The position numbers were made by a program, and so were the translations under genes. Below are positions 1,453 through 29,675 of a stretch of 32,000 nucleotides of DNA, piece by piece. Below the pieces are notes generated by a model. It saw nothing but the letters and a program-made list of their open reading frames with translations. It ran no database searches and was not told where the DNA came from. Positions within the stretch are counted from its first letter, which is position 1, and each line of letters begins with the position of its first letter. The stretch is from positions 1 to 32,000 of the forward strand of contig JAGWAE010000001.1 in the NCBI GenBank assembly GCA_018302135.1, in the 5' to 3' direction. The DNA comes from Candidatus Woesearchaeota archaeon (lineage in GTDB: Archaea; Nanobdellota; Nanobdellia; SCGC-AAA011-G17; PNOQ01).

Positions 1453-1803
1453 TTAATAACTTAATTTATACTTTTTGTAAATCTTTTGAACATGCCACTT
1501 TGAAAGATTAATCCCATTTATTTTTAAATCTCTACACATACCGTATTTGCTTCTTTTGTTTTCGTTCCACAATCGCAATATCATTTTTTCTGTATCCAAA
1601 TCAATAGGTACTTCTCTAGCACCAGGTTTTTTATTTTTAAGTCCAGTTTCGCCACATAAAGAATATAATTTAATCCATCTACTCAAAGTTTGTTTATGTA
1701 TTTTTTGCATCTTTGCAGATTTATTTATTGATACTTGCCCAGATAAAAATAGGTTTATACATCTTAACTTAAAATTTTTGCTGTAGCCTTTTTTATTTAT
1801 CAT
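1453..1803 (-). CDS. Stand-alone helix-turn-helix protein resembling the N-terminal DNA-binding half of an IS481/IS3-type (rve) transposase, with no catalytic domain
   Basis: 116 aa. KQTLSRWIKLY is an HTH-like segment, and MILRLWNENKRSKYGMCRDLKINGINLSKWHVQKIYKKYKL looks like a second winged helix as found ahead of rve integrase cores. The gene starts 5 nt after the deacetylase stop, so it is probably co-transcribed. Confidence 0.5.
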   Translation of the reverse strand: MINKKGYSKNFKLRCINLFLSGQVSINKSAKMQKIHKQTLSRWIKLYSLCGETGLKNKKPGAREVPIDLDTEKMILRLWNENKRSKYGMCRDLKINGINLSKWHVQKIYKKYKLSY

Positions 1804-10798: not shown

Positions 10799-11371
10799 AT
10801 GATTAGCTCAACTATAGATAAATTTATTGCAGAATCTTTTGATAGAGCATTATTTGTTGTTCAAGAACCATTAAAGAATGAAGAGTTGATTTGGGCATTA
10901 ATACCAATAATTGTGACTTTAATTTTAATAGAAATTTATTTTGGTAGATATAGAAGAGAAGAACTTGGCTGGAACACAGCTTTTGGAAACTCACTAATTC
11001 TAATATTTGTTTCAGCAGATTTAATTAAGTATTCAATAAGAACTAATATACTAGGTACAGATCCAATAAAAACTGGGATTATAGTTGGTTTAATCACAGT
11101 TGGTTTTATAATAACTTTTGTAGATTTTTTTCATATGATGCCAAGAGAATGGGCATTTGCAATATCCTCAAAATTACCAACAAGCTTTTTAGCAATAATT
11201 TCAATGCTATTTATTTACATAGATATTCCGATTGATTACATCACAGCCACAGCATTGTTTCTTCTACTCTTAAATATGTACATTGTTTTAATAATAATAC
11301 ATCATTTGATACCTGCATTTAGAGGATTATTTCCAGAAGAAGTTCCAGATCCGATATTAGAAGAAGATTAA
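10799..11371 (+). CDS. Integral membrane protein of unknown function
   Basis: 190 aa with about 5 hydrophobic helices and an acidic C-terminal tail (EEVPDPILEED). Confidence 0.55.
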   Translation: MISSTIDKFIAESFDRALFVVQEPLKNEELIWALIPIIVTLILIEIYFGRYRREELGWNTAFGNSLILIFVSADLIKYSIRTNILGTDPIKTGIIVGLITVGFIITFVDFFHMMPREWAFAISSKLPTSFLAIISMLFIYIDIPIDYITATALFLLLLNMYIVLIIIHHLIPAFRGLFPEEVPDPILEED

Positions 11372-15695: not shown

Positions 15696-16241
15696 TTATT
15701 GTTTTAGATCAAGATAAACTTGCCAAGGAGACTTAACACTATATGTAGGTGATTTCATCATATCTATAAACTCATAAGCTACTCTCCATTCAGAATAAGG
15801 TATCTGAAATTTAGCCTCATCATTTTTTATTTTCTTTAAACTTCTTAACAAATTATTTGTAAAATTCCAAACTTCTTTATTATCTCCTTTATTAACTTCA
15901 TATCTATCCATTAATCTTGAAAAATGCTCAAATATCTCACTGTAGTTAACTGATTCCCTAATATCATCCATAAAAAAATTGTGCATCTTATCAGAATCAC
16001 GAAAGTTGTCCAAAAAATCAACAAGTTTACCTAAACTTGGAACATTTTGAAGCTTATCCATTCCATACAACTCTTTTAAAAGATTAAGATGAAACATCCT
16101 CCATTCCAAAGAAAGATATGCTTCATCATCAAGATAACCTAAAAGTTCCAAATCAGTTTGAGTTCCTAATTGAATGGGATCATACTTTCTAGAACCAATT
16201 TGTCCCAGACTCGGAGCATAAAGAGAATCGTCAAAATTCAT
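15696..16241 (-). CDS. Acidic hypothetical protein
   Basis: 181 aa with no recognised motif. It lies 2 nt downstream of TrmB and 32 nt upstream of pheS on the same strand. Confidence 0.55.
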   Translation of the reverse strand: MNFDDSLYAPSLGQIGSRKYDPIQLGTQTDLELLGYLDDEAYLSLEWRMFHLNLLKELYGMDKLQNVPSLGKLVDFLDNFRDSDKMHNFFMDDIRESVNYSEIFEHFSRLMDRYEVNKGDNKEVWNFTNNLLRSLKKIKNDEAKFQIPYSEWRVAYEFIDMMKSPTYSVKSPWQVYLDLKQ

Positions 16242-20293: not shown

Positions 20294-21310
20294 ATGGAAA
20301 TACTTTTAAAACACATCGAGTTCAAAACCTTGATGGAAAAAACGCCTAATCTTCAAGTTCCTAAAAAAAGAATAAAAAGAACGGGAGTATATATAAGCAA
20401 ACCACTCAAAAAATTTCTCGAAGAATCAACCCATGCTTATACTGAAACTTTAACCCCTAATAGAGAAGAAGTGTCAATTTATTGTGACCATATTAGTAAA
20501 GCAAAACATGTTCTCATGGGCAAATTTTACGAAGAATTAAGCGGAGCATTTTATGGAGGAATAGTACTTGATGGAAAGTCAATAAGAGAAAATCCGGCTC
20601 AATTAGATATTGATTTTGGAGAACTCGAACAAATGATAAACTGGGAAAATAAACCAAAAGATGAATTATTTATAAAACCTGATATAGTAAACATTGGAAA
20701 ATCAATAGGTGAAGCAAAGGGATGCAAAAGCGGTTCATCACTTCATATTTTTGACGAACAAACAGAAAGATATAGAAAAATACAACTAAGAAGTCCAGCA
20801 CATTCAGTTTACTTTGCAATATACAGACACGCATTTCAGAGAATAAAAGATAAAACGGCTACAATACGCTCGGGTGAAGAAATAATACAAGATTTAAGTT
20901 TATCGACAATGTATTCATTAAAAATTCCATTGAGTATACTCTTGTACTTACATGGAAAATGGTATGGAAATATAAAAGAAACGTTAGGATATAGGTATGG
21001 GAAATCAGATTATCAAGATTGTACGATGGCAAGAGAATTTGCAATAAGAAGTTTATTTCAAGATCCAGAAAAAATAATTGATATGCTTGATTTAAGCCCA
21101 GAAAATTACAAAATTACTAGAAAGTTATCACCAGAAAATTTTACAGTAAGAACTTCACCAGCAGAATCATTAACAACTCTAACACAATTTCCAATACTTA
21201 TGATAGAAGACAAAGACCATGAAAACTGGATTGATTCATTCGTTGAATCTGAAAAAAGATTAGGAACAAACATCCAAGAAATACAAGGAACAGAAGAAGT
21301 TCCTTTCTAA
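20294..21310 (+). CDS. Hypothetical protein with a candidate PD-(D/E)xK nuclease motif
   Basis: 338 aa. FIKPDIVNIGKSIGEAKGCK fits (P)D-x10-E-x-K. I recognise no other family features. Its 3' end overlaps the convergent EamA gene by 4 nt. Confidence 0.55.
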   Translation: MEILLKHIEFKTLMEKTPNLQVPKKRIKRTGVYISKPLKKFLEESTHAYTETLTPNREEVSIYCDHISKAKHVLMGKFYEELSGAFYGGIVLDGKSIRENPAQLDIDFGELEQMINWENKPKDELFIKPDIVNIGKSIGEAKGCKSGSSLHIFDEQTERYRKIQLRSPAHSVYFAIYRHAFQRIKDKTATIRSGEEIIQDLSLSTMYSLKIPLSILLYLHGKWYGNIKETLGYRYGKSDYQDCTMAREFAIRSLFQDPEKIIDMLDLSPENYKITRKLSPENFTVRTSPAESLTTLTQFPILMIEDKDHENWIDSFVESEKRLGTNIQEIQGTEEVPF

Positions 21311-22179
21311 AACCTAATAACAAGAATAGCACCAATAATCAACAACAATGTAGCAATTGTTTTCTTTAGTAAATTATGTTCCTTAAACAATTCTCCTCCA
21401 ATTACAACTGCAAAAAACACTGAAGTTCTTTTAACTGCCAAGGCTAAAGCAGTTGAAGTTGTAGTTTTTATAGCCAATATTTCAAAATATCTATAACCAA
21501 TTGTTACCAAACTCAATATTAAAATTAAAATCCAATCTCTTCTAAGAGTTTTTCCAAAATTCTTAATATTTTTTCTTTTATCAAATATTAAAAACATAGC
21601 TAAAAATATAAAAAAGAAGAAAAAGTGTTGAAAGCTCATTAAAGCAGTTGGCTGTAATTTATATTTATTTAACAAAACTCTGTCTAGTATAGTAGTTATG
21701 GTAAACAAAGTCAAAGCCAAAATAATAAATTTATATCCTTTTTTTAATTTCTTAAAAGGATCTAATAAACTTCGATTAGTCTGAAAAATATAAACTCCTA
21801 AAGTTAATAAGAATAACCCAAATATTTCTAAATTAGTTAAACTTTCTTTCAAAAATATCCAAGCAAATAACGCAACAAAACCAGGAGTTAACACAAGTAG
21901 AGGCAAAGCATCTGATAGTTCTAAATTTTTTATAGCAAACATTACTCCAACAAAAGCAATTCCATTTAATACAGCTTTAAACAATAATACAATTAAACTA
22001 ATACTAGTTATTTTAGAAAAGTCAATATAAAACAAAAATATTGAAGCTAAAATCATATTAAAAATTGCCAAAACTAAAACAAAATCTAAAGCTCTATCTT
22101 TAAACAAAGCTTTTTTCTCAATTATTGCAGCAAATGCAGAAAGAATAGCAGATATTCCCGCAAAATAAAACCATTCCAT
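21307..22179 (-). CDS. EamA/DMT-superfamily transporter
   Basis: 290 aa with about 10 TM helices arranged as two EamA-like halves. Confidence 0.75.
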   Translation of the reverse strand: MEWFYFAGISAILSAFAAIIEKKALFKDRALDFVLVLAIFNMILASIFLFYIDFSKITSISLIVLLFKAVLNGIAFVGVMFAIKNLELSDALPLLVLTPGFVALFAWIFLKESLTNLEIFGLFLLTLGVYIFQTNRSLLDPFKKLKKGYKFIILALTLFTITTILDRVLLNKYKLQPTALMSFQHFFFFFIFLAMFLIFDKRKNIKNFGKTLRRDWILILILSLVTIGYRYFEILAIKTTTSTALALAVKRTSVFFAVVIGGELFKEHNLLKKTIATLLLIIGAILVIRF

Positions 22180-23189: not shown

Positions 23190-23372
23190 ATGGTAAAAGT
23201 ATCTGTAGACAAAAACAAATGTATTGGTTGTGGAGAATGTGTAAAAATCTGTAAAAATTTTAAGATGGTAAATAACAAATCAGTGCCAGTAGATAAAAAT
23301 CCAAAAGAAATTGGTTGTAATGAAAAAGCAGCAAAAAACTGTCCAACAAAAGCAATAAAAGTTAGTAAGTAA
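23190..23372 (+). CDS. Small single-cluster [4Fe-4S] ferredoxin (Pyrococcus furiosus Fd-like)
   Basis: 60 aa. It begins VKVSVDKNKCIGCGECVKIC and has a distal ...NCP, giving the pattern CxxCxxC...CP. An AGGAGG Shine-Dalgarno-like site lies upstream. Confidence 0.75.
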   Translation: MVKVSVDKNKCIGCGECVKICKNFKMVNNKSVPVDKNPKEIGCNEKAAKNCPTKAIKVSK

Positions 23373-24195
23373 ACTTCAAACCTTCAGCTCTTTCAAAAGT
23401 TCCTCTTCTTGATAAAGGTATTCTTTCTCTTTTAGCTTTATTTAAATAAGCAATAATTCTCTTCTTCTTTTTAGCAATTGATAAATTACAAGTATGTGAC
23501 CCACCAATACAACCTCCAACACAAAAATTCACATCCAAAAATTTAATTTTTTTATCTGGTTTATCTAAAAACTGCATAACTTTTTTTATTCCATCAATAT
23601 GTTTAATTTCATTTTTTTTAATAACATCATTTAAATGCGCAGTTTTGCTTAATCCCCCAGCCAAAGGATAAATTTTAGTATAATCATTATAGAACTTATC
23701 AAATATTTTTTTACTTGGTTTAATATTATTTAACTTTTTTTCTTTAAAAATTTCTCTTAATTGTTCATAATCTATTACATAATCAACATATTTTGATTTA
23801 TTTGCTTCTATTTTTTTATAATCGCAAGGAGACAAGAAAACAGTTTTATGTTTAGGATAAATTTTTTTACAAATTTTAGCCATAGCAATCATAGGACTGT
23901 CAACTCTAATCAAATTCTTTTTATATTTTGGATAATTTTTATTAACAACTTCAACTATTCCTGGACAAACTGTAGCTATAACTAATCCTTTAGAACTTTT
24001 TAATATTTTATGATACTCTCTATTAACTAATTTAGCACCAAAAGTTAACTCAACAATTTTGTCAAAACCTAATTTTTCTAACTGAGAGAGTATTTTAGGA
24101 TATTCAAAATCAGCAACAAAACTTGGAGCAACTAGCGCAACCATTTTCTTATGCTTTAATTCTTTTAAAATTAAATTAATATTATTTTTTTTCAT
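23362..24195 (-). CDS. Minimal [FeFe]-hydrogenase large-subunit H-domain homologue (Fe_hyd_lg_C-like) with no accessory Fe-S domains
   Basis: 277 aa. By my recollection of Clostridium pasteurianum hydrogenase I (CpI), it aligns along its length: VAPSF, LGFDKI, FGA, ATVCPG (vs TSCCPG), DSP, LSPCDYKKIEA (vs MPCxxKKxEA) and FCVGGCIGG (vs CHGGCVNGGG). Cys77, Cys124, Cys225 and Cys229 occupy the four H-cluster ligand positions. Confidence 0.7.
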   Translation of the reverse strand: MKKNNINLILKELKHKKMVALVAPSFVADFEYPKILSQLEKLGFDKIVELTFGAKLVNREYHKILKSSKGLVIATVCPGIVEVVNKNYPKYKKNLIRVDSPMIAMAKICKKIYPKHKTVFLSPCDYKKIEANKSKYVDYVIDYEQLREIFKEKKLNNIKPSKKIFDKFYNDYTKIYPLAGGLSKTAHLNDVIKKNEIKHIDGIKKVMQFLDKPDKKIKFLDVNFCVGGCIGGSHTCNLSIAKKKKRIIAYLNKAKRERIPLSRRGTFERAEGLKFTY

Positions 24196-24226: not shown

Positions 24227-25045
24227 TTAACCTTTCCATCCAACTTTCTTCTTCATCAAACTAACTAAAACATCATGTTTTTCTTCAAATGTTTGTCTAG
24301 TATGTTTATACAAAACTCCAATAGGAATTCTTCCATTTCTAGTTGCATAATCCCATTCATCAGCCAATTTCATAGCTCTTTTCATATTACTTCCATTATC
24401 AACTTTATACATATATTTTCTAGCATGATCTAAACTAGGATTAAATATAATACAAGTTTGTAATATTTCAACAAAAGCAAATCCTTTATGTTCTATTGCT
24501 TCTTTAATAATCTTAGCTGTATGCTCAATATTTCTAGCATCACATCTAGCAACAAAACTAGCACCAGAAACTAAAGCCAATTTTATAGGATTTAAAGGAT
24601 GTATTTCATTACCATTAGGTTCTATTTTACTTTTAAAACCAAGTTGTGAAGTTGGAGTAATTTGACCAGTAGTCAAAGAAAAAGACTGATTATCATGTAC
24701 TATCAAAGTCATATCACTATTATTTCTACAAGCATGAATAAAATGCTCCATACCTTCTGAATAAGTATCACCATCACCAGCATAACAAACAACTTTCAAA
24801 TTAGGATTTCCAATTTTAATTCCAAAAGCACTAGCTAACGCTCTGCCATGTAATCCGTAAAAACCACTTAAGTTCAAATAATCAAAAATTTTACCATGAC
24901 AACCAATTCCAGCAACAATAACAAAATCATTTTTTTTATATCCTTTCTTAATTAAACTATTAAAAGCTCTCTTACTAGATTCTAGAATCATATGATTAGG
25001 GCATCCAGGACACCAAGTTATTTTGTAGTCAGTAGATAGATTCAT
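24227..25045 (-). CDS. 2-oxoacid:ferredoxin oxidoreductase, beta (TPP-binding) subunit
   Basis: 272 aa carrying WCPGCPNH, GIGCHGK and YAGDGDTYSEGMEHFIHACRNN, the TPP/Fe-S motifs of POR/KOR beta subunits. Confidence 0.9.
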   Translation of the reverse strand: MNLSTDYKITWCPGCPNHMILESSKRAFNSLIKKGYKKNDFVIVAGIGCHGKIFDYLNLSGFYGLHGRALASAFGIKIGNPNLKVVCYAGDGDTYSEGMEHFIHACRNNSDMTLIVHDNQSFSLTTGQITPTSQLGFKSKIEPNGNEIHPLNPIKLALVSGASFVARCDARNIEHTAKIIKEAIEHKGFAFVEILQTCIIFNPSLDHARKYMYKVDNGSNMKRAMKLADEWDYATRNGRIPIGVLYKHTRQTFEEKHDVLVSLMKKKVGWKG

Positions 25046-25620
25046 TTTTTACCTCTTAATATTTTAGCTCTTGCCTTTCTCCAATCACTTCTAAAAAGCG
25101 CGTATATATTATCATCATAAATCTTACCGTCTGCTTTACAAATAGTTACTTTTTTTCTAGTTCCCTCTCGTTTAAATCCAAATTTTATGGCCATAGAATT
25201 TGAAGCCTTATTATTTGTAAAAACTTGGCTTTCTAATCTTCTTAATTTTAATTTATCAAAAGCAAAATCAAGTATTGGAACTTTAGCTTCTGTTATATAT
25301 CCCTTTTTCCAATATTTTTTATTTATCCAAGAACCTGTAATAGCTGTTTTATTTTGGTAATTAATATTTTCTACGCTTGTTGCGCCTATAACTTTTTTTT
25401 CAGATTTTAATTCAATTACAAAAGTGTAACCCTCTCTCTGTTTTTTTCTCCATTTTTTAATAGTTCTATTAATCCACCAAAGGGCATCTTTTTTCTTATA
25501 CGGATGAGGAACTGTAGCAAGATTTTTTGAGACTTCCAATCCTTTTACTCCTTCGACCACATCTTTCCAATCAGTTTTTCTAGGTTTTCTCAAGATTAAT
25601 CTTTCAGTTTCAAAAATCAT
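25042..25620 (-). CDS. GNAT N-acetyltransferase (RimJ/RimL, Acetyltransf_3-like)
   Basis: 192 aa. The N-terminal ETERLILRKPRKTDW is a hallmark of the family, and the GNAT core follows (WINKKYWKKGYITEA...). Both ends share ATGA stop/start overlaps with the OFOR subunit genes. Confidence 0.85.
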   Translation of the reverse strand: MIFETERLILRKPRKTDWKDVVEGVKGLEVSKNLATVPHPYKKKDALWWINRTIKKWRKKQREGYTFVIELKSEKKVIGATSVENINYQNKTAITGSWINKKYWKKGYITEAKVPILDFAFDKLKLRRLESQVFTNNKASNSMAIKFGFKREGTRKKVTICKADGKIYDDNIYALFRSDWRKARAKILRGKK

Positions 25621-27128
25621 ATTTTTCCTAACTCCTTCCTCAACTCATCAGCCAAAAAAGGCCTTCCATCATATTTCAATATTCTTTTCTCAATTTGAAT
25701 TCCAGTTCTTTCTCTAATTAATCTTCCAAGTTGTCCAGTTAAATTATTTTCAACTAGCACAACTTTTTTAGCTTTCTGAATTTCTTTTTTAATTCTAGAA
25801 CTCATTGGCATTAAATATAAAACTTGTAAAAATTTATAATCTAAGTCTTTAATAGCATCCAATATTACACCTTTAGTACTTCCAAAACCAATAACTAAAT
25901 TTTTGCTATTTTTTTTACCATGAACTTTAATCATTTCAAATTTTTTAACTTCTTTTTTTATTTTACTATATTTCAATAATCTAGCTTCATTATTTTTTTT
26001 AACAATCACAGAATCCTCAGTAGTATTTCCATATTTATCATGCTCATAACTAGTTGCTCTAACTAATCCTTCACCAGGAATTTTTCTAGCAACACTAAAC
26101 TTTATTGATCTATTTGGTTTAGAATCACTTCCGTATTCACCCTCAGCCAAATGTTTATCAGATAATATTATACTCAAACATTTAAATTTTTCAGCTAAAT
26201 AAAAAGATTCATTAGTTTTTTCAATACATTCTACAGGATCGCCCGGAGCAACAACAACTCTAGGAAATTCACCATGGCCTCCACGTAAAGCAATGTTCAA
26301 ATCAGATTGCCCAGAATAAGTTGGAACTCCAGTTGAAGGCCCAGGTCTTGAAGCTAAATAAACAACTAATGGAACTTCAGACATTCCTTGAAAACTTAAA
26401 CCTTCAGTCATCAAATCAAAACCGCCACCAGAAGTACCAATCATAACTTTAGCTCCAGCAAAACTTGCACCTAAAGCAGCATTAATTACAGCAATTTCAC
26501 TTTCTGGCTGTATAACCAAAACTTTTCTAGCCAAATCATTCATCAATGGAGTAGCTGGTGTCATAGGATAAGCAAAATAAACATTCAATCCAGAATTTAC
26601 AGCACCAATAGCAACTCCTTCGCTACCATCTAAAATATTTATTTTATTTTTTAATTTTTTTAAATGATATTTAATTATACTTCCTTGACTATCATAACCT
26701 TTCTCAGCTGCATGTTCTGCCTCTTTAGTTCCAAACTCTTTTTTAATTTCATTTAATAAATCTTGTTTTTCTATTCCTAACAGTTTTATCAAAGCACCAG
26801 CCAAAGCAACATTAGTATTTCTTCCTAAACCAATAAAACTTTGAAAATTTAAAACAATACAATTACGATTTAATTTATTTTCATGTATTTTTGTTGTATC
26901 AATATCCAATGCTAAAATAAAATCAATTTTGTTAGTATAACTATTAATTCTTTCATCAGATATTGTTAAAATATTAAAATTATGTCCTCCTCTAATCAAA
27001 GAAGGATAATCTCTATAATTAAAAGTGTAATAACCTTTTTTTGCTACAATACTAGAAATTATCTTAGATACTTTGTTAATTCCTTGGCCTGCTTGGCCAC
27101 CAATAAGAATGTTAATTATCACCTTCAT
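25617..27128 (-). CDS. 2-oxoacid:ferredoxin oxidoreductase, fused gamma-alpha subunit
   Basis: 503 aa. The N-terminal roughly 165 aa form a gamma domain (ILIGGQAGQGINKVSKI...). The alpha domain follows (GSEGVAIGAVNSGLNVYFAYPMTPATP, GTSGGGFDLMTEGLS, RPGPSTGVPT). Confidence 0.9.
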   Translation of the reverse strand: MKVIINILIGGQAGQGINKVSKIISSIVAKKGYYTFNYRDYPSLIRGGHNFNILTISDERINSYTNKIDFILALDIDTTKIHENKLNRNCIVLNFQSFIGLGRNTNVALAGALIKLLGIEKQDLLNEIKKEFGTKEAEHAAEKGYDSQGSIIKYHLKKLKNKINILDGSEGVAIGAVNSGLNVYFAYPMTPATPLMNDLARKVLVIQPESEIAVINAALGASFAGAKVMIGTSGGGFDLMTEGLSFQGMSEVPLVVYLASRPGPSTGVPTYSGQSDLNIALRGGHGEFPRVVVAPGDPVECIEKTNESFYLAEKFKCLSIILSDKHLAEGEYGSDSKPNRSIKFSVARKIPGEGLVRATSYEHDKYGNTTEDSVIVKKNNEARLLKYSKIKKEVKKFEMIKVHGKKNSKNLVIGFGSTKGVILDAIKDLDYKFLQVLYLMPMSSRIKKEIQKAKKVVLVENNLTGQLGRLIRERTGIQIEKRILKYDGRPFLADELRKELGKI

Positions 27129-27156: not shown

Positions 27157-28479
27157 TTATCTTTTATTATAATACCCAACTAACTTATCCAAAGCACTAA
27201 TAGCTTTCTCAGGGAAATCAAAACTAACTAAATTTAAATTTTTTAAATATTCAGGATTAGAACCAGTAGCAACTAATATCATAGGTTTCTTGTTAAATTT
27301 AGCTATTACTTCCAAAACCTTTTCATCTAAAGTAGGAGTTTGATACAAAACAATAACTAAAACACAATCAACATTTTTATCATTCATTACATTTTCTAGA
27401 GCAAATTTATACCTTTCATCATTCGCGTCTCCAACAATATCCAAAGGATTTCCAATGTTAACAGTTGGGGGTAACTCTTTCCATAATCTTCTTTTAACAT
27501 TTAAAGAGAGTTCAGTCATTTTCAAGTTTTTAGAGAGTTCAATACCATCCGCACTAATAATTCCAAAACCACCACCATTAGTTAAAACTAAAATTTTATT
27601 TCCTTTCAATTTTATTTCTTTATCAAAAAGCATAGCAACATCAAACATTTGTTCCAAACTATCAACCCTAACTAAGTTTAACTGATCAAAGATTCCATAA
27701 AACACTTCTTTTTCACCAGCCATAGATCCAGTATGAGACATAGCAGCTTTGCTACCTTTTTCAGTTAATCCACCCTTCAAAACAATAATAGGTTTTTTTA
27801 TTTTTTTACAAATATTAAAAAACTTTTCAGGATTTTTTATTCCTTCTACATATAAACAAATAACTTTAGTATGTTTATCTTTATTCAAATATTGAAGTAA
27901 ATCTGACTCATTAATATCAACAGCATTACCATAACTAATAAACTTAGAAAAACCAACATGTTTACTAGCCAACAAATCTAAAACAGCTCCACCTAAAGCT
28001 CCAGATTGACAAACAAAACTTACTCCCCCTTTATTTGGCCTTCTCAATTTTTCCTTAGGTATAAATATACAATCTAAATTAGAATAAGCATCATATAAAC
28101 CTAAACAATTTGGTCCAATAACTCTAATGTTATTCTTTGTTGTATATTCTTTTAATTCTTCTTCTGCTTTTACATTTCCAACTTCACTAAACCCAGAACT
28201 AATTATCAAAACATTTTTTATTTTCATATAATTACAATCTTCTAATATACTCATTACCAAACTTTGATGTACACAAATTATTGCTAATTCAATATTATCT
28301 TTAACTTCAGCAACAGAACTATAACATCTAACACCAAGTATTTCTTGCGCATTAGGAGTTATAGGATAAACCTTAAACTTAGCTTCTAATAAATTTTTAA
28401 AAATAACATGCCCAATTTTATTTTCTTCTCTAGATACTCCTATAACTGCTATACTTTTAGGCCTAAAAAACTCTTTCAT
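27157..28479 (-). CDS. acdA: ADP-forming acetyl-CoA synthetase (acetate-CoA ligase, NDP-forming), alpha subunit (CoA-binding and ligase-CoA domains)
   Basis: 440 aa. FFRPKSIAVIGVSREENKIGH is the CoA-binding N-terminus, IGPNCLG is present, and AAMSHTGSMAG is the phosphohistidine loop. Confidence 0.85.
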   Translation of the reverse strand: MKEFFRPKSIAVIGVSREENKIGHVIFKNLLEAKFKVYPITPNAQEILGVRCYSSVAEVKDNIELAIICVHQSLVMSILEDCNYMKIKNVLIISSGFSEVGNVKAEEELKEYTTKNNIRVIGPNCLGLYDAYSNLDCIFIPKEKLRRPNKGGVSFVCQSGALGGAVLDLLASKHVGFSKFISYGNAVDINESDLLQYLNKDKHTKVICLYVEGIKNPEKFFNICKKIKKPIIVLKGGLTEKGSKAAMSHTGSMAGEKEVFYGIFDQLNLVRVDSLEQMFDVAMLFDKEIKLKGNKILVLTNGGGFGIISADGIELSKNLKMTELSLNVKRRLWKELPPTVNIGNPLDIVGDANDERYKFALENVMNDKNVDCVLVIVLYQTPTLDEKVLEVIAKFNKKPMILVATGSNPEYLKNLNLVSFDFPEKAISALDKLVGYYNKR

Positions 28480-29048: not shown

Positions 29049-29675
29049 ATGAGTAAAATATTAAATTCATACGAAGCACAACATTTTCTAGAAAAATATA
29101 TAGATTTACCTAAATCACAATTAGTTAACGTTTTATCAGAAATAAAAATTCAACCACCATTAGTTCTAAAAATAATTTCTGATCAAGCCATTCATAAAAC
29201 AGAAATAAAAGGAGTACGTATTGTTAATTCTAATGAACAATTAGTTAAAGAATTTAACAATTTACAAATTTTATCAAAAAAAATTAATATTAAAGGCATT
29301 TTAGTTCAAGAATTTATAGAAGGTGAACAACTAATAATAGGAATAAAGAAAGATCCAGTTTTCAATCATGTAATTTTATTCGGTCTTGGAGGAATATACA
29401 CTGAACTACTAAAAGATACATCTATTAGAAAATGTCCAATCACAGAAAAAGACGCTTTAGAAATGATTAATAGTCTAAAATCAAAAGAATTATTCTACAA
29501 TTTCAGTAACAAAAAATTAAACACAAAATTATTAATAAAAACACTAGTTAATATTTCAAAAATTCCATCAAAACATAAAGACATACAAGAACTAGATATT
29601 AATCCATTCATATTAAACGAAAAAGAAGGAAAAGCAGTTGATATAAGAATTGTTTTTAATTCTTTACAGTCTTAA
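29049..29675 (+). CDS. acdB: ADP-forming acetyl-CoA synthetase beta subunit (ATP-grasp domain)
   Basis: 208 aa. LNSYEAQHFLEKY...LVLKIISDQAIHKTEIKGVRI...LVQEFIEGEQLIIGIKKDPVFNHVILFGLGGIYTELLKD...ELDINP is typical of the ATP-grasp_5 / ACD beta family. Confidence 0.8.
   Translation: MSKILNSYEAQHFLEKYIDLPKSQLVNVLSEIKIQPPLVLKIISDQAIHKTEIKGVRIVNSNEQLVKEFNNLQILSKKINIKGILVQEFIEGEQLIIGIKKDPVFNHVILFGLGGIYTELLKDTSIRKCPITEKDALEMINSLKSKELFYNFSNKKLNTKLLIKTLVNISKIPSKHKDIQELDINPFILNEKEGKAVDIRIVFNSLQS

Follow-up and report, generated by a model that had tools for sequence, protein, structure and literature searches.

A group E ultraminimal [FeFe] hydrogenase gene closes a putative 2-oxoacid fermentation operon in a Woesearchaeota archaeon

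We have identified a 277-residue [FeFe] hydrogenase, here called HydA, that is very probably an ultraminimal enzyme of group E encoded at the end of a putative operon that would convert a 2-oxoacid to acetate and ATP and probably to H2. By its sequence, HydA is a new member of this published group, and its host is a DPANN archaeon of the Woesearchaeota/Nanoarchaeota type. Both the group E family and its adjacency to 2-oxoacid:ferredoxin oxidoreductase (OFOR) genes had already been published in 2024. A preliminary description of the same DNA had left three options for the protein, namely a catalytic ultraminimal enzyme with an alternative proton path, a sensory variant, or a non-catalytic Nar1-like Fe-S protein. 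The first is the one favored here, by homology to the published group E enzymes and with a proton path that is predicted to be non-canonical.

The window analyzed is the whole 32,000-nt stretch at positions 1-32,000 of contig JAGWAE010000001.1 (assembly GCA_018302135.1), from Candidatus Woesearchaeota archaeon (GTDB lineage Archaea; Nanobdellota; Nanobdellia; SCGC-AAA011-G17; PNOQ01). Its GC content is approximately 28%, it carries archaeal genes such as TrmB, and a tRNA scan found no tRNA genes within it. The hydA gene occupies positions 23362-24195 on the minus strand, begins with ATG and encodes 277 aa (32 kDa); the open reading frame (ORF) that had been described there, with its strand unnamed, is thus real. 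Independent assemblies yield the identical protein on 21 contigs, so that an error of assembly or sequencing does not account for the ORF. In NCBI, this protein is filed under Candidatus Woesearchaeota archaeon and the hydA product is labeled "hypothetical protein".

HydA is an [FeFe] hydrogenase protein consisting of the H-domain only, as had been observed in the preliminary description. All of the motifs listed there are present, including VAPSF (residues 22-26), LGFDKI (42-47), FGA (52-54), ATVCPG (74-79), SPCDYKKIEA (122-131) and CVGGCIGG (225-232). The HMM comparison that had been proposed as a check gave a highly significant match to Pfam Fe_hyd_lg_C (PF02906; E=1.8e-40; score 139.6 bits, cutoff 22.1), with residues 16-232 covering positions 1-244 of the 245-position profile. 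It is the sole Pfam domain found, in keeping with the earlier statement that F-cluster domains are lacking; the Pfam scan revealed no accessory or signaling domains, and the H-domain plus a 44-aa tail make up the whole protein. There are six cysteines (C77, C109, C124, C225, C229 and C236) and no CxxCxxC motif in the 277 residues. HydA scores far under the cutoffs of the NCBIfam models for group A hydrogenases. An AlphaFold2 model (pLDDT 92.4, pTM 0.89) was compared with the PDB using Foldseek, and the top matches were all [FeFe] hydrogenases, with query-normalized TM scores of 0.76-0.78 to CpI, CbA5H and TmHydA. HydA shares the H-domain fold and the H-cluster ligands of group A enzymes such as CpI and CrHydA1. 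The loops are longer in these two proteins (574 aa and 457 aa, respectively), and F-clusters are an additional feature of CpI.

Group E was defined by Greening et al. (Cell 2024; PMC11216029) as the "ultraminimal" hydrogenases of DPANN archaea, which have a mean length of 286 aa, consist of the H-domain without any accessory Fe-S motif, and are hosted by Nanoarchaeota, Iainarchaeota and Micrarchaeota. Group E enzymes include Fm from Ca. Forterrea multitransposorum and Na from CABMGN01 sp902385635; activity has been reported for Fm only (PMC11216029) and not for Na, which is the closer relative of HydA. Fm binds one [4Fe-4S] cluster, assembles the H-cluster with [2Fe]adt in vitro, and works in both directions, favoring H+ reduction and giving an H2 oxidation current at high potential (PMC11216029). 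HydA shares 57% identity (residues 16-275) with a gene on CABMGN010000008.1 (CABMGN01 LFW-170_3), the genome of the Nanoarchaeota group E representative modeled in that study, and this homologue reads SSVCPG where HydA reads ATVCPG. The preliminary description had already pointed to reports of very small [FeFe] hydrogenases in DPANN archaea.

At least 986 homologues were found, mostly of 273-308 aa and, where named, from Woesearchaeota, Pacearchaeota or Nanoarchaeota; 208 genomes of GTDB species contain relatives, that of CABMGN01 LFW-170_3 among them. Group E is accordingly far larger than its 30 defining sequences. In a rough neighbor-joining (NJ) tree, built without support values or labeled group A-G reference sequences, HydA falls in a clade of 26 representatives, of which 25 are no longer than 320 aa. 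Compared with the LFW-170_3 gene directly and with Fm by description only, HydA differs in nothing essential from published group E. It shares with the group a similar length (277 aa against the mean of 286), the four ligand cysteines, the lack of accessory clusters, a DPANN host, an adjacent OFOR, the absence of a nearby HydEFG gene, and non-canonical proton-transfer residues. What sets this locus apart is that a GNAT gene separates the two OFOR genes and that ferredoxin and presenilin-type peptidase genes separate hydA from its usual EamA neighbor.

HMMER alignments pair V76, C77, C124, C225 and C229 of HydA with C299, C300, C355, C499 and C503 of CpI, respectively. The four H-cluster cysteines had been named correctly, and the CpI numbering given for them (C300, C355, C499, C503) was right, as these pairings show. 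None of the four varies in any of 120 close homologues, and the same holds for the pocket residues P24, P101, K127 and E130, while S25 is kept in 118. These correspond to conserved residues of the CpI [2Fe] pocket (K127 to K358, E130 to E361, P24-S25 to P231-S232, P101 to P324), and C229 to the bridging C503. In the second sphere, S122 stands at the position of M353 and N223 at that of M497. The four cysteines are therefore predicted to hold the [4Fe-4S] subcluster and to bridge it to a [2Fe] subcluster, and the conservation of residues whose CpI equivalents contact only [2Fe] and its CN and CO ligands would be hard to account for without a bound [2Fe] site.

It is unlikely that HydA is a [4Fe-4S]-only protein, never given a [2Fe] subcluster because its host lacks HydEFG, and acting as a Nar1-like scaffold or as an OFOR-linked carrier or reductase. 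Nar1/NARFL is a eukaryotic protein of the CIA pathway with an N-terminal Cys motif that binds a second [4Fe-4S] cluster. HydA has no such N-terminal motif, its first cysteine being C77, and its host is archaeal; no Nar1-like chains occurred among its PDB matches, which by sequence and by fold are all true hydrogenases. The earlier Nar1-like option is left unsupported by the missing N-terminal Cys cluster and by the invariance of the CpI [2Fe]-pocket equivalents. What favors a protein devoid of [2Fe] is the scarcity of maturases. Among ORFs of at least 90 aa in the 32-kb window, a scan from which a few short ORFs nested within longer genes were left out, there is no hydE, hydF or hydG and no radical-SAM or HydF-like gene, in agreement with what had been noted before. 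A conserved maturase-like neighbor of hydA was sought among ORFs within 4 kb in 80 related loci, and none was present. Likewise, most archaeal genomes that encode such enzymes are devoid of HydE, HydF and HydG, and of 130 in which an [FeFe] hydrogenase is encoded only 5 have the full HydEFG set (PMC11216029). Against this stand the invariance or near-invariance of K127, E130, P24-S25, P101 and C229 in the 120 homologues and the normal H-cluster that Fm builds in vitro (PMC11216029).

The proton-relay cysteine of group A enzymes had been described as replaced by Val in this copy. V76 does align to CpI C299, but the replacement is not particular to HydA: four residues (P, V, A and T) take this position interchangeably among its relatives. 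It is occupied by P in 45, V in 34, A in 29 and T in 12 of the 120 homologues, and by V in 35, P in 20, A in 17 and T in 9 of the set formed by HydA and 80 species loci. Across 189 non-redundant relatives it is never Cys, and a rough NJ tree of the 189 sequences implies about 29 changes at this site, none of them to Cys. The absence of the relay Cys is thus, by sequence comparison, a trait of the whole group E clade and not of a single copy. The position is among the most changeable of the active-site motif and covaries with the CpI-M497 position, which is Leu in 68 of the 120 relatives and Asn (N223) in HydA; Val at the relay site always comes with Asn or Thr at the other, and Pro always with Leu. 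The variability together with the covariation argues for a packing role and not for one in proton transfer.

The rest of the group A pathway is likewise not kept. HydA retains neither the TSCCP relay Cys, nor the E279/S319/E282/R286 pathway, nor M353 and M497. In place of C299, S319 and E282, HydA has V76, I96 and I64 or K63, respectively, which would bar the group A route, and the sole remaining candidates for an E279 equivalent are the invariant Y61 or E60. The alternative glutamate of group D is also missing, as the GGL motif puts the invariant L182 of HydA at the position of E252 in TamHydS and V423 in CpI. With the group A route barred and Leu in place of the group D Glu, the proton route of HydA is predicted to be non-canonical, and water-mediated access of protons to a more solvent-exposed active site is the likeliest arrangement. 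Tyr176, at the CpI F417 position, was considered as a relay specific to group E and rejected, as Tyr is also common at this site in the long C/D-like relatives (F in 44, Y in 35). No follow-up studies on group E proton transfer were found in the literature searched.

TamHydS of Thermoanaerobacter mathranii, a putative sensory hydrogenase of group D, has A137, S191 and L291 at the corresponding positions and E252 at the CpI V423 position (PMC11803613, PMC10407848). It shares the substitution pattern of HydA, with C299 replaced by A137 (V76 in HydA), M353 by S191 (S122 in HydA), and M497 by a residue other than Met in both (L291 and N223), and the group A proton pathway is absent from both proteins. 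By analogy, the resemblance of the V/S/N combination of HydA to the A/S/L of the slow TamHydS suggests that its turnover is probably much under that of the clostridial enzymes. Unlike HydA, TamHydS carries [4Fe-4S] clusters at its N terminus and a cluster domain at its C terminus and relays protons through E252, and its genomic context is regulatory, whereas hydA lies in an OFOR operon.

The gene hydA is the last of five on the minus strand. The run opens with acdA (27157-28479), encoding the alpha subunit of an ADP-forming acyl-CoA synthetase (Pfam Succ_CoA_lig and CoA_binding_2), which ends 28 nt upstream of oforA (25617-27128). The latter encodes the OFOR alpha subunit as a fusion of gamma (POR) and alpha (POR_N) parts (Pfam POR and POR_N; NCBIfam OAFO_sf at 4.7e-134). 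A GNAT acetyltransferase gene (25042-25620; Pfam Acetyltransf_3, 9e-26) follows, overlapping oforA and oforB by 4 nt each, and oforB (24227-25045), for the TPP-binding OFOR beta subunit (Pfam TPP_enzyme_C and PFO_beta_C; NCBIfam PRK11866 at 6e-85), ends 31 nt upstream of hydA. From these spacings (28, -4, -4 and 31 nt) we infer that acdA, oforA, GNAT, oforB and hydA are co-transcribed as an operon. A promoter and terminator scan, which applied a bacterial consensus to AT-rich archaeal DNA, gave 43 sites against 40.6 expected. On the plus strand lie acdB (29049-29675), for the ATP-grasp beta subunit of an ADP-forming acyl-CoA synthetase (Pfam ATP-grasp_5, 2.9e-43), and a gene for a 60-aa ferredoxin (23190-23372; Pfam Fer4_13, 2e-10) with a single [4Fe-4S] site (CxxCxxC...CP at C11, C14, C17 and C51), which is convergent with hydA and overlaps its 3' end by 11 nt.

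OFOR genes are often adjacent to group E genes in Nanoarchaeota (PMC11216029). Of our 80 related loci, 40 carry an oforB homologue no more than 6 kb from hydA, usually as the gene immediately upstream and in the same orientation, and an oforA homologue is present in 36; GNAT occupies the corresponding place in only three, and a ferredoxin homologue is near hydA in only nine. In the remaining half or so, hydA is found among housekeeping genes. Clustering of the ORFs within 4 kb of hydA in the 80 loci yielded only OFOR, EamA, AMP-forming acyl-CoA synthetase and housekeeping genes, the last including those for TFB, S8e, Sm and an RNase-Z-like MBL protein, and a conserved regulator gene next to hydA was not among them.

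An EamA/DMT-family transporter gene (Pfam EamA, 2e-21) lies at 21307-22179 on the minus strand of the window, and 24 of the 80 loci have EamA directly beside hydA, separated from it by a median of 8.5 nt and in two different upstream contexts. There is a slender chance that group E enzymes gain [2Fe] without HydE, HydF or HydG, for example from a host-made diiron precursor or ligand imported by EamA. The idea of EamA as a candidate importer rests on gene adjacency, which could be inherited synteny.

The OFOR and acyl-CoA synthetase operon, with the ferredoxin gene and acdB nearby, fits ferredoxin-dependent fermentative evolution of H2. In such a scheme, the two-subunit OFOR would oxidize pyruvate or another 2-oxoacid to an acyl-CoA and reduce the 60-aa ferredoxin, which is likely the electron carrier between OFOR and HydA, and the ADP-forming acyl-CoA synthetase would convert the acyl-CoA to the acid with formation of ATP. 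Reduced ferredoxin would make direct contact with HydA where the [4Fe-4S] part of the H-cluster is exposed, and HydA would dispose of its electrons as H2. That HydA binds [2Fe] and catalyzes H2 turnover is suggested by the conserved pocket residues (K127, E130, P24, S25 and P101) and by analogy with Fm, a more distant member of group E that is active in vitro.

A stand-alone H2 sensor or regulatory hydrogenase, which would signal H2 partial pressure to a partner and carry no metabolic flux, is an improbable role for HydA. Its H-domain lineage does lie nearest to sensory types, and to this extent the sensory option of the preliminary description has a basis. The nearest multidomain relatives, which by their sequences are sensory-type group C/D enzymes, are 550-800 aa long and carry a Fer4 dicluster toward the N terminus; 69 of the 79 nearest long relatives have a PF04060 FeS domain at the C terminus, and PAS, HisKA, sigma-54 and MCP modules also occur. 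On the sensory reading, the active site of HydA would be of the low-activity type of groups C and D, with which it shares the lack of the relay Cys; like TamHydS, HydA has Ser in place of M353, and group E has been placed as sister to group C (PMC11216029). TmHydS, the group C sensory hydrogenase of Thermotoga maritima, is the closest characterized homologue of group E, at 28% identity to Fm (PMC11216029), and has A131 where HydA has V76. However, the accessory domains of groups C and D, present in 69-70 of the 79 nearest long relatives, are absent from HydA by Pfam, and it has no PAS, kinase or other signaling domain; TmHydS, unlike HydA, carries a PAS domain and accessory clusters. The sensory reading is further disfavored by the position of hydA at the close of a metabolic operon for OFOR and acyl-CoA synthetase, by OFOR adjacency in about half of the 80 species, and by the lack of a conserved regulator neighbor. 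Moreover, Fm favors H+ reduction, whereas TmHydS prefers H2 oxidation (PMC11216029).

Within the fermentative reading preferred here, the direction of flux would be toward H2. Uptake of host-derived H2 to reduce ferredoxin for 2-oxoacid synthesis by a reversed OFOR is hardly credible: [FeFe] hydrogenases and OFORs are reversible and Fm shows an oxidation current at high potential, but Fm is biased to H+ reduction, DPANN genomes with group E enzymes generally lack carbon-fixation pathways (PMC11216029), and the ATP-yielding ADP-forming acyl-CoA synthetase of the operon fits the oxidative, fermentative direction.

The covarying relay and M497 sites are targets for mutagenesis aimed at proton movement in the smallest hydrogenases. 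A gene labeled as encoding a hypothetical protein can now be classed, from its sequence and setting, as that of a group E hydrogenase in what would be a compact module leading from pyruvate to acetate, ATP and H2.

The hydA gene (23362-24195, minus strand) begins with ATG and encodes a 277-aa, 32 kDa protein. As the preliminary description had anticipated, it is an H-domain protein: Fe_hyd_lg_C is its single Pfam domain (E=1.8e-40, near-full profile, positions 1-244 of 245), and each motif listed for the ORF was found at the residue numbers assigned to it. The best NCBIfam match was to the monomeric group B model; it spans that model's C-terminal half and, because the N-terminal half is lacking, scored far under the cutoff. 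The query has six cysteines (C77, C109, C124, C225, C229 and C236). In HMMER alignments with PDB chains of the group A reference enzyme CpI, V76, C77, C124, C225 and C229 correspond to C299, C300, C355, C499 and C503, which bears out the four cluster cysteines and the valine at the proton-relay position (CpI C299) that had been read from the sequence. An AlphaFold2 model, for which the input alignment held 56 sequences, was confident (pLDDT 92.4, pTM 0.89), and its top Foldseek matches in the PDB were all [FeFe] hydrogenases (CbA5H, TmHydA and CpI; query-normalised TM 0.76-0.78). Independent assemblies in NCBI, ENA and Logan carry the identical protein, with the same neighbours, on 21 contigs, and V76 is therefore no error. 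The 100% identical NCBI entry is designated "hypothetical protein" of Candidatus Woesearchaeota archaeon.

Group E was defined by Greening et al. (Cell 2024; PMC11216029) as the "ultraminimal" [FeFe] hydrogenases of DPANN archaea, with a mean length of 286 residues (n=30 sequences). These enzymes are monomers with a solvent-exposed H-cluster and without accessory clusters, and sensory group C is their sister clade. One member, Fm, binds one [4Fe-4S] cluster and assembles the H-cluster with synthetic [2Fe]adt; its catalysis is bidirectional and biased to H+ reduction (PMC11216029). At least 986 homologues of the query were found at E<=1e-5, the best 120 of which are 273-308 aa long with PF02906 as sole domain. 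Using one genome per species, a GTDB scan located relatives in 208 species genomes, and the 80 retained are almost without exception named Woesearchaeota, Pacearchaeota or Nanoarchaeota. The related locus L061 (contig CABMGN010000008.1) is from isolate LFW-170_3, the genome named for the Nanoarchaeota group E model (PMC11216029); its product shares 57% identity with the query and has SSVCPG as the corresponding motif. An exhaustive search of 50%-identity representatives returned 37 at E<=1e-30, the best of them 250-320 aa in length, followed by a tier of 550-800 aa in which the H-domain starts near residue 60-75. Among 79 long relatives, an N-terminal 4Fe-4S dicluster domain is present in 70, a C-terminal PF04060 Fe-S domain in 69, and PAS, histidine-kinase, sigma-54 or MCP modules in subsets, which is the group C/D sensory architecture. 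In a rough NJ tree, the clade that contains the query has 26 representatives, and 25 of these are <=320 aa long. By domain, length, relatives and tree placement, the query is therefore a member of group E on every tested feature. Nested in the same ultraminimal clade is P0142, a 352-aa metagenomic representative in which an N-terminal 2x[4Fe-4S] ferredoxin domain precedes a group-E-like H-domain; this architecture reflects either an occasional regain of the F-domain within group E or the ancestral state.

Valine at the relay position had been noted for this copy. The residue is present, and homologue counts make its departure from cysteine a family-wide trait, not a feature of this copy: the position is occupied by P45, V34, A29 and T12 in the 120 closest homologues, and by V35, P20, A17 and T9 in the query plus 80 species loci. 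More distant small representatives align with V, A, P, N, S, T or H, except for three short SCC-motif proteins (P0194, P0247 and P0263) placed among or near long group A/B-like sequences. Parsimony on a rough NJ tree of 189 non-redundant sequences gives ~29 changes at this position. Within group E, residues 76 (codon at about 23968-23970, minus strand) and 223 (about 23527-23529, minus strand), the equivalents of CpI C299 and M497, covary strictly; Val at 76 pairs exclusively with Asn or Thr at 223 (67/67), and Pro pairs with Leu in 59/60. C299 and M497 are the two adt-amine contacts in CpI (PMC11803613). From the alignments, the pattern looks like packing compensation at the bridgehead and not selection for a proton donor.

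The rest of the group A pathway is likewise missing: CpI S319 is I96, E282 is I64 or K63, and E279 corresponds to an invariant Y61 in the profile alignment or to a deletion adjoining E60 in the single-sequence alignment. The group D relay Glu, E252 of the putative sensory enzyme TamHydS at the CpI Val423 position (PMC10407848), is replaced by an invariant Leu182. CpI M353 corresponds to Ser122 in 119/120 homologues, matching TamHydS S191, and M497 to Leu, Thr or Asn, which makes the second coordination sphere one of group D type. Together with the C/D-like relatives, this active site has suggested that the product is a stand-alone sensor; however, the query is without an output domain and belongs to a metabolic operon, and Fm favors H+ reduction. 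A fifth cysteine, C109 (codon at about 23869-23871, minus strand), is conserved in 114/120 close homologues. It aligns with CpI S332, in the helix following P324, and its position holds Leu, Ile or Val in long C/D-like relatives.

A purely [4Fe-4S] or Nar1-like role has been suggested as well, and missing maturases favor it. The scanned window ORFs of >=90 aa included no radical-SAM or HydF-like gene, in agreement with the earlier remark that hydE/F/G are absent from the window, and no conserved maturase-like neighbor of hydA was seen across 80 loci; the full HydEFG set occurs in only 5/130 archaeal genomes (PMC11216029). Against such a role, residues that touch the [2Fe] subcluster alone are invariant, and the N-terminal cysteine motif is absent from the query. 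The [2Fe]-pocket equivalents K127, E130, P24, S25 and P101 are invariant or nearly so.

Five minus-strand genes are arranged as acdA-oforA-GNAT-oforB-hydA with gaps of 28, -4, -4 and 31 nt. They encode the alpha subunit of an ADP-forming acyl-CoA synthetase (ACD; acdA, 27157-28479, Succ_CoA_lig and CoA_binding_2), a 2-oxoacid:ferredoxin oxidoreductase (OFOR; oforA, 25617-27128, POR and POR_N; oforB, 24227-25045, TPP_enzyme_C and PFO_beta_C) and, between the latter two, a GNAT acetyltransferase (25042-25620). The gene for a 60-aa ferredoxin with a single cluster (23190-23372, plus strand) is convergent with hydA, with an 11-nt overlap, and an ATP-grasp ACD beta subunit is encoded at 29049-29675 (plus strand). 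The ACD alpha and beta genes flank the OFOR-hydrogenase genes. With the ferredoxin gene, they round off a ~7-kb module that would combine the oxidation of 2-oxoacids with ATP synthesis at substrate level and the disposal of electrons. Of 80 related loci, 40 have oforB and 36 have oforA <=6 kb from hydA, for the most part immediately upstream on the same strand; a ferredoxin gene is near hydA in nine, and in the remaining loci hydA sits amid housekeeping genes. The best-supported scheme is the published reading, in which OFOR would reduce ferredoxin, ACD would make ATP, and HydA would reoxidise ferredoxin with formation of H2; the data establish domain identity, conservation of the ligands and the order of the genes, from which we infer this electron flow, its direction and co-transcription of the genes. 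H2 uptake, possible in principle, fits an ATP-yielding operon poorly.

The GNAT gene overlaps oforA and oforB by 4 nt on each side, and is found at this junction in only 3/80 related loci. The oforA-oforB spacing in other loci is 0-900 nt, and the junction seems to tolerate varied inserts. An EamA/DMT-family transporter gene (21307-22179, minus strand) is separated from hydA in the window by the ferredoxin and presenilin-type signal-peptide peptidase genes. Such a gene lies immediately beside group E hydA in 24/80 species loci (e.g., L003, 6837-7700; L036, 6869-7744), usually convergent and separated from it by a median of 8.5 nt, whether the upstream setting is OFOR or housekeeping genes. Elsewhere in the window, a 116-aa ORF (1453-1803, minus strand) with an HTH_Tnp_1 transposase helix-turn-helix domain alone may be an IS remnant; it adjoins cell-surface/glycan genes (polysaccharide deacetylase, GT2 and UDP-glucose dehydrogenase). 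ORFs at 20294-21310 (plus, 338 aa), 10799-11371 (plus, 190 aa) and 15696-16241 (minus, 181 aa) had no Pfam match at E<=0.001.

The group E family, its size, hosts, OFOR neighborhood, altered proton-transfer residues and lack of maturases were published in 2024, and the query gene is a further, hitherto unannotated member. Our analysis adds three modest points that leave the classification unchanged: it greatly widens the census, shows the relay position to be labile and to covary, and identifies an EamA transporter gene as a recurrent neighbor.
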